Source of the DNA: Abditibacteriaceae bacterium
GTDB taxonomy: Bacteria > Armatimonadota > Abditibacteriia > Abditibacteriales > Abditibacteriaceae
Reading direction: 5' to 3'
Assembly (NCBI GenBank): GCA_031372065.1
Contig: JANMKN010000066.1
Location: 1 to 27,635 of the forward strand
Length of the DNA stretch: 27,635 nucleotides
In this document: in pieces, positions 7,016-25,218 of the stretch
How the letters are laid out: every line of letters starts with the position of its first letter
Position numbering within the stretch: position 1 is the first letter of the stretch
Notes under the pieces: model-generated
The model's input: the letters and a program-made list of their open reading frames with translations, nothing else
Database searches by the model: none
Told to the model about the DNA's origin: nothing
Program-made: the position numbers and the translations under genes

Positions 7016-7078
7016 TTCAGATTTCTCTTTGGAAAAAGCGGAAACCTCAGTGAGAGAAGCAGATTTCCCAATCGGCCC
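7016..7078 (+). repeat. Three detached 21-bp units of the repeat family found at 7413-7664
   Basis: ttcagatttctctttggaaaa / agcggaaacctcagtgagaga / agcagatttcccaatcggccc match the array pattern (agatttctc or aaacct, agt, g-gaaa). Confidence 0.7.
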
Positions 7079-7081
7079 ATT

Positions 7082-7237
7082 ATGGCATTGCCCTCGTTCT
7101 TGTTGTGGAATGTGGCAACGGGCAAATTGGAAAAGAAAACGCCCGACACCCACGAAGAAAGCTCGGCTATCTCGCCAGATAGGAAAATGTTGGCGGTTGG
7201 CTTATTACACAGCGCCGATTTGTATCGGATTAAGTGA
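7082..7237 (+). pseudogene. C-terminal fragment of a WD40-repeat protein (51 aa)
   Basis: Manual translation MALPSFLLWNVATGKLEKKTPDTHEESSAISPDRKMLAVGLLHSADLYRIK*; LWNVATGK and SPDxKMLAVG are WD40 hallmarks, but only about one blade is present. Confidence 0.65.
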
Positions 7238-7283
7238 GCATCCACCAAGCGCAGTCAAACTATGCTGCCTGAGACGGAGAATT

Positions 7284-7318
7284 AGGCGGCAGGAGGCAGA
7301 CGGCGGGAAGCAGGAAAA
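7284..7318 (+). repeat. Short degenerate heptamer run (AGGAGGC-like x4-5)
   Basis: aggcggc aggaggc agacggc gggaagc aggaaaa. Confidence 0.45.
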
Positions 7319-7412
7319 GCAGCCCCATTTCGGTCTTTTCCCTATGGCGACGGTGGGATTAGGGGCGAAATTTGGCTTTTTGGGGGCGAAAAGTGGATGG
7401 GGAAGCGAAACA

Positions 7413-7664
7413 TCGGCTTTTCTTAGTGGGAAAGGGCGTTTTCTCACTAAGGGATCGAGTTTTCTCAGTGGGAAAAGCAGAAACCTGAGTCAGGTAGCGA
7501 GATTTCTCACTGAGAAAAGCCGATTTCCTTGTCAGGTAGCGAGAAACCTGAGTCAGGTAGCAAGAAAGCTGAGTGGGAAAACGAGATTTCTTTGTCAGGC
7601 AGCACGATTTCCCAGCGGGAAAAGTAGAAACCTGAGTGAGTTTTCTTGATTTCTTGATGGGAAA
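7413..7664. repeat. Array 1: 12 contiguous degenerate 21-bp units, each with a palindromic 15-bp core
   Basis: Units such as tcgagttttctcagtgggaaa, agcagaaacctgagtcaggta, gcgagatttctcactgagaaa, gcacgatttcccagcgggaaa at exact 21-bp spacing with no indels. Confidence 0.9.
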
Positions 7665-7727
7665 AATGGAATTTTTGGTCGTAACCCTGCCTGTGTGGTA
7701 GGGAATTCATATTTGAGGAGGCCAGAA

Positions 7728-8108
7728 ATGGCAGACATTGCAGTGCCGTATGAGAGGCAAAAGACCGATGCGGATTTGACCGAAATCATTGACCGTTCCG
7801 ACGCGGGCATCAGCGTCTTGGATCAGTTGGGGACAGCCTATCAGAGCTTGCCCGGTTATGCAATGACGGCTTTGCAAGCGCTGAATCAAGAACTAAAAGA
7901 TGACCAGACGTTGCTGGAAGGTTTGATCACACAGATTCTGCCTGTTTTGCAACGCCTTGATGTCAACGCCGCGCAAATGCAGGAACTGAATAAAGGGTTA
8001 TTGCCACTGCTGCGCGGCGCTTTGCTCGGCAAACCGGAAGCCGTGCTGCTTGACCGCATCACCGGCCCAACAGAGCAGGGACATCCGGCTACGCCAACTA
8101 ATCCCTAA
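7728..8108 (+). CDS. Hypothetical 126-aa alpha-helical protein downstream of array 1
   Basis: GAGGAGG at 7715-7721 before ATG 7728; Leu/Gln-rich amphipathic pattern; ends GHPATPTNP; followed by a terminator. Confidence 0.8.
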   Translation: MADIAVPYERQKTDADLTEIIDRSDAGISVLDQLGTAYQSLPGYAMTALQALNQELKDDQTLLEGLITQILPVLQRLDVNAAQMQELNKGLLPLLRGALLGKPEAVLLDRITGPTEQGHPATPTNP

Positions 8109-8137
8109 GACGGAGGCAAGGCAATGACTGAAAATCG

Positions 8138-8174
8138 AACGCGGCGAGAGAATTATTTCTCTCGACGCGTTTTT
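8138..8174. terminator. Intrinsic terminator between the convergent 126-aa gene and tpiA, probably bidirectional
   Basis: aacgcggcgagagaa-ttat-ttctctcgacgcgtt followed by a T run, with an A run upstream. Confidence 0.8.
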
Positions 8175-11171: not shown

Positions 11172-11275
11172 ACCTTTGAAAACACAAAGGACACAAAGGC
11201 GCACAAAGTGCCACAAAGAGAGGTGAAAATCTTTGTGAGTCTTTGTGAATCCTTTGTGTCCTTTGTATTGGAAGG
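11172..11275. repeat. Inverted array of 9-10-bp CACAAAG repeats forming a long hairpin across the gap-pgk spacer
   Basis: cacaaag at 11183, 11192, 11202, 11212; ctttgt(g) at 11231, 11241, 11252, 11261; closed by acctt/aaggt. Confidence 0.9.
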
Positions 11276-18226: not shown

Positions 18227-18456
18227 ATGCACATGGGAAGCGACGGACATGGCGGCTGGGAAAAGCCCATCGTGAACACGATGGGCCTTTGCGTGTCGGC
18301 ATCGGCGGCCCAGTTGGTTTGGGCAAAACGGCGTTTTCGCCGGAATTGGTGGACGTTTATGTGATTGGCGTGGCGCAGGGCGAAAAAATCCCGCGCAAAG
18401 GCGGGCCGGGCATCATGCAATCGGACTTGCTAAGCACCCCAACAAAATTAAATTGA
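18227..18456 (+). pseudogene. ureG: Degenerate urease accessory GTPase gene (frameshift, large internal deletion, truncation)
   Basis: Manual translation from 18268: [55 protein letters not shown]; both halves are UreG signatures; ATG 18227 ([10 protein letters not shown]) is in a different frame. Confidence 0.9.
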
Positions 18457-18507: not shown

Positions 18508-18538
18508 GCTTCCACTCGCTTTTATGCCAAGGGTGAAC

Positions 18539-18597
18539 CCAGAGCGTAAGCGACGGGCTTAATTGGCTCGGAGAAAAGCCCGTCGCTTACGCTCTGG
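18539..18597. repeat. REP-like inverted pair (22-bp perfect arms, 15-nt spacer)
   Basis: ccagagcgtaagcgacgggctt ... aagcccgtcgcttacgctctgg. Confidence 0.8.
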
Positions 18598-18772
18598 CTT
18601 GCAAGTGATGCAGGACGACACCAAAAAGATGCGCGGCGATTTGCCGTTAGCCGGACAATTGGCGCATCGCGGCAATACCATCCCCAAACGCTCGAATTAA
18701 ATTGCTTCATAGCAGCGCCGAGAACCCCCTTATACTCTCCTTACTTTCTTCGGAAAGAATAAAGGAGGAAAA

Positions 18773-19874: not shown

Positions 19875-19920
19875 GGTGTTTTTGGATGCTGGATGCTTGT
19901 TTCTTGATGCCAAGAAGCGT

Positions 19921-20151
19921 GCAAACGTGATTTACCCTCGCGCAAAAGACATTTACTCTCGCGCAAAAGACATTTACCGTTGCGCAAAAGAGATTTACCG
20001 TCGCGCAATAGACATTTACCGTCGCGCAATAGGCATTTACCGTCGTGCAATGGGCATTTAGCGTTGCGCAATAGGCATTTACCCTCGCGCAAAAGAGATT
20101 TAACGTCGCGCAATGACGACTTACGTTCGCGCAATGGGCATTTAGGCGTGC
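19921..20151. repeat. Array 2: 11 contiguous degenerate 21-bp units (consensus about GCAAWAGRCATTTACCGTCGC)
   Basis: gcaaaagacatttactctcgc, gcaaaagacatttaccgttgc, gcaatagacatttaccgtcgc, gcaataggcatttaccctcgc and others at exact 21-bp spacing with no indels. Confidence 0.95.
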
Positions 20152-20185
20152 GCAAGGCGGAAAATAACTCAGAAAAATAGGCCTC

Positions 20186-20215
20186 TTGCCATTGTCTGGG
20201 GTATTTACTTAAAAT
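20186..20215 (+). promoter_or_regulatory. Putative sigma70 promoter between array 2 and its downstream gene
   Basis: TTGCCA (20186-20191), N18, TAAAAT (20210-20215). Confidence 0.55.
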
Positions 20216-20244
20216 AGGAATAATTTCCGTGAGGAGTGCCCCCT

Positions 20245-20970
20245 ATGCAAGACAAATTTACCAACCGGCTGGTGATGTTCAATGCCGCGAAGACAACGCT
20301 GAATGAACCGCAGTTTAAAGGCGTATGGTTTGAGCAAGAGCCGGAGATGTTCGCCACCAAAGTGGCACAGATGACGCAGGCGTTGACCGATTTGGAATTG
20401 TTTTATCAACGTCAAGGCAGCGCGATTACCGGCGTGACGCAAAACAAAACGCGCGAAGAACGCGAAGCCGTTGCGGTAGCCTACGCGGTGGCGGGCTTTT
20501 TGGTGGAGTATTTTGAGGAAGCGGGCGACGAAACCAACGCGGCGAAAGTCCGCTTTTCGCTCCACGATTTGCGCCGCCTACGCGACCCGGAGGCTGTTGC
20601 CAAAATGCGCGAAGTGCGCAATTTGACGCGAGGCCTCGTTGAAAACGTTGACCCTGTAATCGTGACCAAAGCGGCCAAATACGGCATCACCGAAGCGCGT
20701 TTGACCTCGGTTCACAAAGAAGTCGAAGAATTTGCCGCTGTTGTCGCCGCGCCGCAATCGAGCATTTCGCAACGCGCCGCGCTGACCAAACAAATGCGTG
20801 ACCGCTTCAACGCCGTCGAAGCCTTGTTTGTCTCGCTGGACAGATTAGTTCTGAACTTTGACGACAGCGCCGCCGGTCTCGCCCTGATTGCCGCCTACCA
20901 AGCCTCCCGCGTCATCCACGACGCCGGACACGGCCCCAGTAGCGCGACAAACACGCCTGCCACGCCGTAA
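20245..20970 (+). CDS. Hypothetical 241-aa alpha-helical protein downstream of array 2
   Basis: GAGGAG at 20231-20236 before ATG 20245; amphipathic helical pattern, YGIT motif, ends GHGPSSATNTPATP; followed by a terminator. Confidence 0.88.
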   Translation: MQDKFTNRLVMFNAAKTTLNEPQFKGVWFEQEPEMFATKVAQMTQALTDLELFYQRQGSAITGVTQNKTREEREAVAVAYAVAGFLVEYFEEAGDETNAAKVRFSLHDLRRLRDPEAVAKMREVRNLTRGLVENVDPVIVTKAAKYGITEARLTSVHKEVEEFAAVVAAPQSSISQRAALTKQMRDRFNAVEALFVSLDRLVLNFDDSAAGLALIAAYQASRVIHDAGHGPSSATNTPATP

Positions 20971-20986
20971 ATGCGTAAACATCAGT

Positions 20987-21024
20987 AAAAAGCGCCCCAC
21001 GAAAATTCTCGCGGGGCGCTTTTT
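20987..21024. terminator. Intrinsic terminator, probably bidirectional
   Basis: aaaaagcgcccc...ggggcgcttttt. Confidence 0.88.
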
Positions 21025-21235: not shown

Positions 21236-21754
21236 TCAGGGTGGCGCTTGCCCTTGTGCTTTCCAATAGGCTAAAAAGTCTCGCTCCTGTTTATCGCGCT
21301 GATGGCGGTATTGAATTAAATAAGCAGTCCATAACAAGAAATAGTCGGGGCGCTCATCCAAAACCACCAAGTAACTGAAATCGCGCGGCGCAATCAATAA
21401 TCGCGTTTTTCCTTTGCGCTCATTACGCCACCAAATTACCTCTGGCCTGCCATTATCCAAAGCCTCGACTAAAGCGCGCGGCCACAAGATTCGCTCACAG
21501 CGTCTTAAATCGGGAGTGCGCTCCACCTCAATATTCCCCTCACTCACGCAATGCCAAAAAGTCGCTTCTTTGTTATCGAAAAGCGGATGGCGTTTGAGGC
21601 GGAAAACTTTATCCAACAAAACCGGCGAAGACAAAACCCAATCATCCATAAAAAGTTGATAGACCGCTTCGACGTAATCGTTCCAGCGCCCACCGTAGTG
21701 AGTTAAAAGGCAGAGTTCTGGAAGCCAATCAGGAGCATAATTTGAGTCTGTCAT
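21236..21754 (-). CDS. Hypothetical protein partnered with DUF3800; possible RelE/BECR-fold RNase
   Basis: 172 aa; ATGA overlap with the DUF3800 stop; ATFWHCVSEG, DLRRCERILWP, C-terminal YLVVLDER...LLWTAY; the fold is an inference. Confidence 0.8.
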   Translation of the reverse strand: MTDSNYAPDWLPELCLLTHYGGRWNDYVEAVYQLFMDDWVLSSPVLLDKVFRLKRHPLFDNKEATFWHCVSEGNIEVERTPDLRRCERILWPRALVEALDNGRPEVIWWRNERKGKTRLLIAPRDFSYLVVLDERPDYFLLWTAYLIQYRHQRDKQERDFLAYWKAQGQAPP

Positions 21755-22494
21755 CCCAATGGCTCCCGACCTTGATTTTCAGCGCCCCAATTGCCACTGG
21801 CAAGCGGCGACCAATGAAATAAATTCACTTTGCGCGCCCGAAGTAAAGTGGAACGTGTTAATTGATAGCCGCTGCGTTTGCGTAAGCGTTCGACAAGGGC
21901 TGTTTTCGCCACATTGCTGGTTAAACCTCGATTGGCGTAAGCGATGATGCCGCACAGTAAATCGGCTAACTGAATTTGCTCGACTTGATGCGATTGAACC
22001 TGATGCACGCCCTGTAAAATGCGGCGCTCGAAATCCCACATATTGTTGCATAAAACGTCATGCAAACTTTGGATTTTCGGGCCGCCGCGCGTGTCTTTGT
22101 AGTCGACAAAAATGCGATAGCGCGCTTCAGGGTCAAGCAAGGGGTTCAAGAGGTAAAAATACATCTTGTAATACCAATCATCGTGCGATTGGCCGAAACC
22201 GTCGTGCGCAAGGCCGACTTTATCGGCGATGAGGCCGCGAAAATTCAGGTCGTCGTCATCCAAAAAATAATTCAAAACGGCGCTGTAATATTTTTGCTGC
22301 CCCACAGAAACTTTGTTCCACTTGCTTTCAAAATGCGCGGGCAAACCATGCTCAATTTTGATTTCGCGCAAGCGTTCGGCGACTTCGCGCGTTTTGCGCG
22401 TCGGACACCACACCGCGCCTAAAACCATAATCGGTTGATGGTCGTTTTGCAAATGACAACTCTCGTCGCAGTAGATGTTGTAAATACCGTTCAT
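21751..22494 (-). CDS. DUF3800 family protein (predicted RNase H-like fold)
   Basis: N-terminal IYCDESCH, ESKWNKV, IFVD, C-terminal SHQVEQIQLADLLCG; ATG 22494 preferred over GTG 22521. Confidence 0.9.
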   Translation of the reverse strand: MNGIYNIYCDESCHLQNDHQPIMVLGAVWCPTRKTREVAERLREIKIEHGLPAHFESKWNKVSVGQQKYYSAVLNYFLDDDDLNFRGLIADKVGLAHDGFGQSHDDWYYKMYFYLLNPLLDPEARYRIFVDYKDTRGGPKIQSLHDVLCNNMWDFERRILQGVHQVQSHQVEQIQLADLLCGIIAYANRGLTSNVAKTALVERLRKRSGYQLTRSTLLRARKVNLFHWSPLASGNWGAENQGREPLG

Positions 22495-22496
22495 GA

Positions 22497-22610
22497 TTAC
22501 TGGGCGCGGGTGAGTTTCCACAGTTCGGCGATGATGCGGGTTTGCAGTTTTTCGTCAACGGTGCGGGCGCGGGCTTCGCCGGTTTCGTGGAAGGTTTTGC
22601 CGATTTGCAC
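22497..22610 (-). CDS. Small 37-aa ORF (or gene remnant) directly upstream of DUF3800
   Basis: GGAGG (22618-22622) 7 nt before GTG 22610; MQIGKTFHETGEARARTVDEKLQTRIIAELWKLTRAQ*; stop lies 2 nt before the DUF3800 ATG. Confidence 0.55.
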   Translation of the reverse strand: MQIGKTFHETGEARARTVDEKLQTRIIAELWKLTRAQ

Positions 22611-23714: not shown

Positions 23715-23763
23715 ATAGGGCGAGGCGAACCATCGGGTGGCGGAAATTATCGAACAACGTATT

Positions 23764-25218
23764 ATGCCGATTTTTGCCTATCAAGCTCGTGACAAAGCCG
23801 GTCTGCGCGTGGCGGGCACGCGCGAAGCGCAAAACCGCGATGCGGCGCTGGAAACTCTGCGCGCCGAAGGGCTTTTCGTCACCAAATTAGCACCTGTTGG
23901 CGAAGCGAAAAACGGCGCGATTCCCGTTCAAGCGGGGCTGGCGTCCTCTTCCAATCAAGTAACTTCCGAAGCGGCTCGTTTGGAAGTGGGCGCAAGCCCC
24001 GCGATGCGCGAAATGCCGCAACGCGAAATGCCGCAACGCGAAATGCCGGCGCAAATGCCCGCCTCTGAAGTTCCCTTTCCGACGCCGGTAACTCTGCCGA
24101 CGACTCCTCTTGTCGCTGCGCCCCTGAAGCCTTTGCAAGTTGAAATACCGCAAGCGCAGGAAGGCTTAAACAAGCCATTGCCAGCGCCTCATCCCACGCC
24201 GACGCAGGCTTTGCTGACCGCCGATGCCAAGCAACTATCGCTGTTTTTTCGGCAAATGCACGCCATGATTCACGCCGGAACTTCGGTGGCGCACGCGTTG
24301 GGTTTGATGGCCGAAAACGCGCCAAATGCGGCTTTGCGGCGCGCTTCGGCGGAAATGTGCGCTCGCACGCAGCGCGGCGAAGAATGGAATCGCGCCATGA
24401 GCGCTTATCCCGGTTTGTTTTCCGAACTCATGGTCGGCATGGTCACAGCGGGCGAACACGGCGGCTTTCTCGAACGTATTTTGCTGCGCCTCGCCGAGTA
24501 TTCCGAGCGCGATTATGAAATTCAACAAACCGTCAAGCGCGAAACGTGGTATCCCAAACTCTTGTTGGTATGTTCGTTTCTGATTCCTTCGGTGGTGCCG
24601 CTGGTTAAAGATGGCTTCGGCGCGTGGTTCGCTTCGATAAAAGGCGTTTTGTTCTTTGCGTTGTTGCTTTTTGTGGGCTGGAAAATTTTGAATAAAGTCG
24701 CGCCGGGCCAACTTTCCAACGGGCCGCAACGCGTGGCGATTGACGAATTCAAATTGCGCTTTCCTTATGCCGGAAAATTTGTGCGCGCTTTGGCCGCCGC
24801 CAAATTTTGTCGCGCCTTGGGCGCCTTGCAGGGCGCTGGCATGGGACTGCATAAAACGATTAATCTGGCTTCCGATGCCTGCGGCAACGAAGCGATGGCG
24901 CGTCAAACGCGGCGCATTATTCATCGCTTGGACAGCGGCGAAAGCCTGACTTCGGCGCTGAAATCTACCGGCCAATTTCCACCGATTGCGCTGCAAATGC
25001 TGGCAACCGGTGAAGCCTCCGGCAGCATCGAAGCGCAACTCGATAAAGTCGCCGATTTTCTCGAAGCGGATGCCGAAACCGCGATTAAGCAATCGGTTCA
25101 AGTGCTGGGTATTGTGATCTTCTTGTTGGTAGCGATTCGCGTCGGCATACAGGTGATCGGCGGCTATACCGGCTACTTCGACAATATCGAAAAGACGGCA
25201 AATGAGTTTTCCAATTAG
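23764..25218 (+). CDS. Type II secretion F / type IV pilus PilC family inner-membrane platform protein
   Basis: MPIFAYQARDKAG, FFRQMHAMIHAG, AGEHGGFLE, YPKLLL, TGEASGSIEAQLDKVADF; two GspF repeats. Confidence 0.93.
   Translation: MPIFAYQARDKAGLRVAGTREAQNRDAALETLRAEGLFVTKLAPVGEAKNGAIPVQAGLASSSNQVTSEAARLEVGASPAMREMPQREMPQREMPAQMPASEVPFPTPVTLPTTPLVAAPLKPLQVEIPQAQEGLNKPLPAPHPTPTQALLTADAKQLSLFFRQMHAMIHAGTSVAHALGLMAENAPNAALRRASAEMCARTQRGEEWNRAMSAYPGLFSELMVGMVTAGEHGGFLERILLRLAEYSERDYEIQQTVKRETWYPKLLLVCSFLIPSVVPLVKDGFGAWFASIKGVLFFALLLFVGWKILNKVAPGQLSNGPQRVAIDEFKLRFPYAGKFVRALAAAKFCRALGALQGAGMGLHKTINLASDACGNEAMARQTRRIIHRLDSGESLTSALKSTGQFPPIALQMLATGEASGSIEAQLDKVADFLEADAETAIKQSVQVLGIVIFLLVAIRVGIQVIGGYTGYFDNIEKTANEFSN
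24007..24051 (+). repeat. Intragenic 15-bp tandem repeat (REMPQ-like x3)
   Basis: cgcgaaatgccgcaa x2 then cgcgaaatgccggcg. Confidence 0.9.

Follow-up and report, generated by a model that had tools for sequence, protein, structure and literature searches.

Period-21 satellite arrays are linked to genes of uncharacterised protein families in an Abditibacteriaceae genome and may form mobile cassettes with them

We analysed a stretch of 27,635 nucleotides from the genome of an Abditibacteriaceae bacterium, referred to below as the window. It contains two loci of the same build (cassettes or copies 1 and 2), each with one gene between a tandem array of 21-bp units and a terminator-like hairpin (Table 1). 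Re-inspection confirmed every element that a first-pass annotation had given for copy 1 (12 units of 21 bp, a 63-bp gap, GAGGAGG, a 126-aa ORF and a terminator) and likewise the layout of copy 2 (11 units, an identity of 0.79 at a lag of 21, a 241-aa ORF and a terminator at 20987-21024). For array 1 the count of 12 units stood, whereas its end at position 7413 did not, since about four degenerate units continue upstream to position 7329. A GH...PATP tail described as common to both proteins did not hold up: GH occurs within the last 20 residues in 1 of 39 copy-1 and 4 of 10 copy-2 homologues, and the two tails share P/T richness only.

Table 1. Features of the two cassettes in the window (positions in nucleotides).
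Feature	Position	Strand	Remarks
Leader of array 1	7329..7412	+	about 4 further degenerate 21-bp units, in register with the array
Array 1	7413..7664	.	12 x 21-bp quasi-palindromic units, non-coding satellite
Spacer of cassette 1	7665..7727	+	63 bp; ribosome-binding site GAGGAGG at 7715-7721
Gene of cassette 1	7728..8108	+	126-aa acidic protein, predicted helical, with P/T-rich tail; predicted antiparallel homodimer
Terminator-like hairpin of cassette 1	8140..8174	+	intrinsic type, hairpin and T-run; belongs to the cassette
Array 2	19930..20160	.	11 x 21-bp units, sequence family other than that of array 1
Promoter match between array 2 and gene	20186..20215	+	sigma-70-type, 10/12
Ribosome-binding site of cassette 2	20231..20236	+	
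Gene of cassette 2	20245..20970	+	241-aa protein, predicted all-helical; 17-member family in this genome
Terminator-like hairpin of cassette 2	20987..21024	.	intrinsic type

Array 1 is degenerate, with an identity of 0.49 at a lag of 21, 0.62 at 42, 0.59 at 63 and at most 0.34 at other lags; TRF detected parts of it at periods 21, 42 and 63. Its unit has a dyad core centred on position 14, and C at position 10 and G at position 18 are present in all 12 units. The spacer of cassette 1 holds no match to the sigma-70 consensus. Stretches 78-86% identical to the leader of array 1 and entering array units were found at the ends of contigs C103, C118 and C245. Arrays related to array 1 but lying apart from any family gene, called solo arrays here, are carried by C141 and C400, and those related to array 2 by C64 and C166. 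Judging from four leaders and four far ends, the array family of copy 1 appears to consist of two gene-linked and two solo arrays.

Several other elements were noticed around the cassettes. A 51-aa ORF (7082-7237), presumably the end of a WD40-type gene, precedes cassette 1, and related tails precede the C245 leader and the arrays on C184, C228 and C116. Both cassettes are flanked by short heptamer repeats (about 7290-7320 and 19878-19900); the genome has 27 period-7 arrays. A DUF3800 gene and a 172-aa gene without Pfam match lie directly behind cassette 2 (21236-22521), in a segment unmatched in three congeners. A palindromic repeat at 23930-24002, with dozens of copies in three congeners, is located inside a 493-aa ORF (23737-25218), apparently in frame, and two more short palindromic repeat families (11180-11270 and 18535-18600) are multi-copy in congeners. 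At 18289-18456 there is a 55-aa remnant which we take to be the start of a UreG-type GTPase.

When the genome that contains the window was scanned by lag for tandem arrays with periods of 15-30, 236 arrays of period 21 were found, 218 of them period-specific, compared with 0-13 (0-8 specific) for each other period. The median copy number is 10.3. The fundamental period is 21 in 224 arrays, 42 in 32, 41 in 28 and 20 in 10. By sequence, the 195 strong arrays group into about 120 families whose consensus units look unrelated; 54 of 172 units are palindromic at 0.8 or above (null: 1), and no uniform A/T-tract harmonic was seen inside the units. With a crude gene call (4974 genes) the arrays are non-coding and intergenic. 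From copy number and length, solo arrays are estimated to make up about 1% of the genome.

Protein families were seeded from all 169 array-adjacent genes encoding 90-350 aa. Eleven multi-member uncharacterised families are array-enriched, ten with the array upstream and one with the array downstream, and 41 strong arrays lie just upstream of genes of about ten uncharacterised families. The cassette pattern of the first-pass annotation was recovered, and it extends well beyond the two copies of the window. An upstream array is present in 52 of the 62 members of the ten families with enough sequence and in 19 of 600 other genes. Seeds have arrays by construction; among non-seed members the fraction is 14 of 24. 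These in-genome fractions, like the joint expansion described below, are biased upward because the families were seeded from array-adjacent genes and the profiles built from this genome.

In the downstream-type family, whose proteins have 150-162 aa, an array is located upstream in 0 of 7 and downstream in 6 of 7 members. We noted its arrays on C234, C239, C320, C382, C43 and C69 (L100, L101). Long fn3-like proteins (306-313 aa) have a 41-bp array upstream in 5 of 8 cases, short ones (200-215 aa) a 21-bp array, and one 327-aa gene has a 20-bp array with solos of its own. The 41-bp and 20-bp array families tied to protein subfamilies, again with their own solos, are those of C9, C14, C151, C207 and C219, and of C137 together with C82, C122 and C261. 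Array side and period go with the protein family.

Twenty family representatives yielded only two weak fn3 matches and one match to the PQLLE family. The families are linked weakly or not at all by hhalign, and one mechanism for all of them is therefore an assumption. Close relatives of copy 2 without array occur on C94, C95 and C135 and at L158 and L159, and the congener homologue L002 falls below the array threshold. In 17 of 41 cassettes a sigma-70-type match is present no more than 170 bp from the start, versus 129 of 1217 genes; 14 of the 17 matches are placed between array and gene and three overlap the last unit of the array.

Most arrays adjoin unrelated genes, an outcome the first-pass annotation had set down as a possible refutation of its cassettes. 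They are, to a large extent, gene-less copies of the same families rather than independent repeats: 45 of the 152 arrays not upstream of a family gene share at least six 11-mers with a linked array (0-1 in 20 permutations), and when the rule is tightened 34 solos can still be assigned to 24 of the 41 linked arrays. Solos show no bias in orientation towards their neighbours (20 vs 14, 16 vs 16). Seven of 157 solos lie near family sequence, five being downstream-type cassettes and two arrays beside decayed genes; at about 150 of the 157 no gene remnant was detectable within 700 bp.

Six of twelve solo loci were searched in congeners, and one was not syntenic. Solo arrays are absent at 12 of 12 orthologous congener junctions, which represent five conserved gene junctions. 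These are presumably ccsA-hemC, tmk-holB, ftsI-murE, sbp-cysT and def-fmt. At two of the five the array occupies nearly all of the space from the stop codon to the next start codon. In 3 of 3 congeners the neighbours of both window cassettes are present without the cassettes, and the window arrays have no match in these three. There are 0 period-21 arrays in 400 kb of congener G002 and 2 in 398 kb of G003, versus 14 expected. Five family searches, whose profiles are biased towards this genome, turned up 36 matches in it when fragments are counted, against 0, 2 and 3 in the congeners. Arrays and genes expanded together in this genome. The loci are real, their arrays non-coding, linked to genes and specific to this lineage.

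At the ends of the arrays, whose boundaries are approximate, no pattern of terminal repeats was seen. Inverted matches of at least 9 nt occurred in 6 of 136 arrays (null: 1), close to the null, and flanking direct matches of at least 9 nt in 8 of 136 (null: 0), possibly formed by edge units. No target-site duplication was evident at the five solo junctions, and contigs of three DNA runs contained no excision joint skipping either cassette, which is weak evidence. Two solos of one family, C152 and C197, have an adjacent terminator-like hairpin in common, which suggests solo-to-solo copying together with flank. On C343 (2581-3704) a Y1-transposase-like gene, one of seven in the genome, is followed at a distance of 109 bp by a long solo array.

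These observations bear on the idea that the protein mobilises its array, with dimers that bridge one array to another or to a target and so promote copying. Gene-linked arrays would then be autonomous elements and solos their non-autonomous copies, in the manner of RAYT genes and REPINs but with no nuclease involved. This would fit the 24 linked arrays with at least one solo relative, the solos gained at conserved junctions, the joint expansion, and seven paralogous cassettes of one metagenome that share a sharp left boundary while their upstream flanks mostly differ. We nevertheless consider it unlikely: no catalytic family was matched, no excision joint was seen (weak evidence), two of the solos are arrays beside decayed genes, and for several solo families this 94%-complete genome contains no linked gene.

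A comparison of paralogues revealed that arrays also move between genes. The window segment 7416-7754 differs from that of a paralogue on C41 at 8 of 339 bases, array and spacer having been copied at 98% identity; the encoded proteins share 65% identity, the genes differ by numerous synonymous changes, and the C41 paralogue is followed by a similar hairpin start. Conversely, protein pairs of 84-91% identity have an array similarity of 0.69-0.73, where the 95th percentile of unrelated arrays is 0.67. Over all pairs protein identity and array similarity are not correlated (rho -0.03). Because contigs of two runs of one study, which may include the source sample, carry each of the C41 and window junctions, these are not only an assembly join. 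A near-identical array with a divergent paralogue, and the reverse, mean that the array-plus-promoter module is exchangeable. The proposed strict pairing of one protein with one array is contradicted by this swap as well as by the array-less closest relatives of copy 2.

The swap, the array-less gene relatives and the many solos without gene remnant would also be accounted for if the arrays acted in cis or were minisatellites that spread by themselves. Any protein reading them would then be one of the host, such as a nucleoid protein or a regulator, and the genes would be passengers whose products do not contact the array. Satellites of this period have been published from many phyla (PMC8161180), and the cassette proteins are acidic and match no DNA-binding fold. 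We regard this explanation as possible, though doubtful. It leaves unexplained why about ten families bear arrays compared with 3% of other genes, why side and period track the protein family, and why the far-end motif described below keeps whole-unit length steps from the start codon.

Homologues of the copy-1 protein are encoded at 48 metagenomic loci, 40 of them with upstream sequence; most of these 40 stem from a single metagenome and form clusters of kin. At the strict threshold (0.5) an array was detected at none of the 40. Averaged over these loci, the autocorrelation has peaks at 21, 42 and 63, and a lag test was positive at 26 of the 40 loci versus 3 of 98 controls. Since only this more sensitive test detected them, the arrays of the homologues are much more degenerate than that of the window. 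Period-21 sequence upstream of homologues had been predicted for a family of stand-alone array-plus-gene cassettes; such a family exists, and the array link recurs in its homologues. In relatives, another upstream-type family has the array upstream in 6 of 8 homologues, a further one in 1 of 2 near-full-length and 0 of 2 fragment homologues, and the downstream-type family has it downstream in 2 of 5.

The arrays of copy-1 homologues have a motif at their far end, located 326-395 bp from the start codon in 21-bp steps (L037-L074); 14 of 15 distances fall within 13-17 modulo 21. Its reverse complement resembles a sigma-54 -24 box but lacks the -12 GC. The motif was noted about 10-15 bp inside the sharp cassette boundary. 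Searches for longer or fused versions of copy 1 found none (weak evidence), and neither relatives on viral contigs nor copy-2 relatives on plasmids were found.

Two further roles had been suggested for the array. As an RNA, it would be a repeat partner of the protein in a layout like that of type III toxin-antitoxin systems. Array 1 can indeed fold (z about -6 versus base shuffles), and Bacillus satellites are reported to be transcribed (PMC8161180). The sense strand of array 2 does not fold (z -0.5), and 14 of the 17 predicted promoter matches lie in the interval from array to gene, copy 1 having no match. Together with an array downstream of the gene in one family, the solos without preferred orientation to their neighbours, no match in Rfam or PADLOC, and a DNA-helix period that would not be expected of an RNA, this renders a repeat RNA quite improbable and the toxin-antitoxin layout was discarded.

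That the array encodes an upstream heptad peptide is hardly credible. In the sense direction one frame runs through array 1 without a stop (ORF 7029-7649) and one through array 2, and open frames are slightly commoner than in column-permuted arrays (1.86 vs 1.55 of 6). Against this, the variability of the array columns shows no periodicity of 3 (0.141 vs null 0.164) and thus no codon signature, 18 of 41 linked arrays lack an open sense frame, and array versions of 20 bp and 41 bp exist. A database homologue of protein P0028 has a heptad-repeat N-terminal extension, which is probably its array read in frame by a gene caller.

Both window proteins are predicted to be all-helical, with a pLDDT of 65 for copy 1 and 84.5 for copy 2, and they are not demonstrably homologous to each other (hhalign probability 17.6). 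For copy 1 the prediction is a symmetric dimer with antiparallel subunits, at a score of 0.72 versus 0.00 for the best control; 20 of 30 solved homodimers attain the mark, as does 1 of 23 monomers. The runs agree in at least 95% of contacts at a pLDDT of 86, and residues 20, 23, 84 and 88 would meet across the dimer near both ends. R10, R23, P42, D78 and L95 are invariant in 39 sequences of the copy-1 family, 36 of which are net acidic. By textbook rises, the 53-residue helix of the copy-1 model would measure about 80 Å and one 21-bp unit about 71 Å.

Searches of Pfam, NCBIfam, PHROGs and PADLOC returned nothing significant for either protein, and Foldseek and VIA gave generic helical matches only, the best structural ones at Z 7.5 (rmsd 1.6, 57 aligned) and Z 9.2 (rmsd 2.8, 100 aligned). 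In the ESM Atlas copy 1 has no match above 0.81. Copy 2 resembles unnamed Bacteroidota clusters (0.96-0.97) and, as a lead, a cluster with 32% DUF6261 (0.89); it matches the NCBIfam family NF052641 (PQLLE) weakly (E 0.0016). One cassette protein passes the cut-off of that family (113 bits, cut-off 80), whereas copy 1 matches neither PQLLE nor DUF6261. For these two families we found no described function in the literature, DUF6261 being named only in passing, in listings.

Among the readings of the first-pass annotation, a phased DNA platform remains the best. We tentatively favour, at somewhat less than even probability, mobile satellite-plus-gene cassettes in which protein dimers likely coat phased dyads next to the promoter and arrays are copied by recombination. 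Each locus would be a lineage-specific, likely mobile unit made up of a non-coding satellite with units of two helical turns, a promoter region, one gene and a terminator. Rod-shaped dimers may be strung along the array, each on one dyad unit, and would likely control their own promoter. Gene-less copies of the array would likely also be placed at other intergenic positions; recombination or conversion, not a transposase, would be responsible for them. Recognition would have to be loose, directed at the period and a short dyad rather than at one array sequence per protein. The array link tied to certain families, the side and period following the family, dyad units that would match a predicted two-fold dimer, promoter matches adjoining the array, the 21-bp steps of the far-end motif and the joint expansion argue for coating dimers. 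Against them, no known DNA-binding fold was matched, the module swap and the array-less relatives of copy 2 speak for loose pairing, and the acidic character of the copy-1 family is the main argument against direct DNA binding.

A bolder version, which we consider rather unlikely, sees a widespread class of enzyme-free selfish elements, whose small helical proteins would polymerise on two-turn satellites, measure and bridge them, and thereby fix the repeat length and seed solos. If true, selfish-element proteins would be the missing partner of constant-length bacterial satellites and a counterpart of eukaryotic satellite-binding proteins. Solos between operon genes may also alter how these are expressed, and a protein that measures phased DNA could serve as a tool.

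Phased repeats by the promoter of a gene whose dimeric product coats them are familiar from parC/ParR centromeres and from iteron/Rep systems. Here no motor ATPase or Rep gene is adjacent, and the loci are chromosomal, comprise dozens of families and have no ribbon-helix-helix or helix-turn-helix match. Nostoc SDR elements are another possible comparison. A type III toxin-antitoxin system was rejected, no ToxN/AbiQ/CptN/TenpN-type toxin or antitoxin RNA being matched, and so was a CRISPR array, as the 21-mers are contiguous and degenerate, without unique spacers, and Rfam gave no CRISPR match.

In RAYT/REPIN systems a gene stands beside its own repeat family, which also has gene-less extragenic copies (Bertels and Rainey, PMC3116915). 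Gene-less cognate copies are dispersed extragenically in our genome as well. The cited part of that work describes REPINs as inverted doublets adjoining a tyrosine transposase (PMC3116915); our units form tandem arrays with a median of 10 copies instead of an inverted-doublet hairpin, and the seven Y1_Tnp matches of the genome all lie outside this contig. An identity with REPINs was rejected on the grounds of the tandem arrays and the adjacent gene, which has no transposase match. The BrickBuilt MITE of Porphyromonas gingivalis is an intergenic multi-copy minisatellite of 23-nt units with leader and tail, and a sister element has 41-nt units (PMC4596501). As described in the cited sections, it has IS5-type terminal inverted repeats, a single sequence family and no associated gene (PMC4596501), in contrast to the missing ends of this kind, the roughly 120 families and the linked genes found here. 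A BrickBuilt-type MITE was rejected, terminal inverted repeats being close to the null in 136 arrays.

The first-pass annotation had known of no matching named system. The arrays do fit a published class, the bacterial satellites of Subirana and Messeguer, which have a constant length of 20-21 nt, or two helical turns, a variable sequence and no coding function, with several species-specific families per genome (PMC8161180, PMC6749651; see also PMC8625621). Constant length with variable sequence (about 120 families), non-coding intergenic location and species specificity (12 of 12 congener junctions empty) were all found in our genome. Those authors propose an unnamed protein polymerising on the satellites (PMC8161180). 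The cited sections of PMC8161180 and PMC6749651 name no partner gene, whereas in our genome some of the arrays accompany uncharacterised genes, and the solos derive from the same families as these. A further published feature of the class is a short sequence common to most repeats of a species; the consensus units found here look unrelated. Within the literature covered, we found no paper linking 20-21-nt satellite arrays to genes. How a fixed period of 20-21 nt goes with a freely changing sequence is a stated open question for bacterial satellites. This genome offers dozens of candidate protein-array pairs with periods of 20, 21 and 41, on both sides of the gene and with a natural module swap, so that the idea of a partner is directly testable. 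What is new is likely a candidate gene partner for the known class of 20-21-nt satellites.
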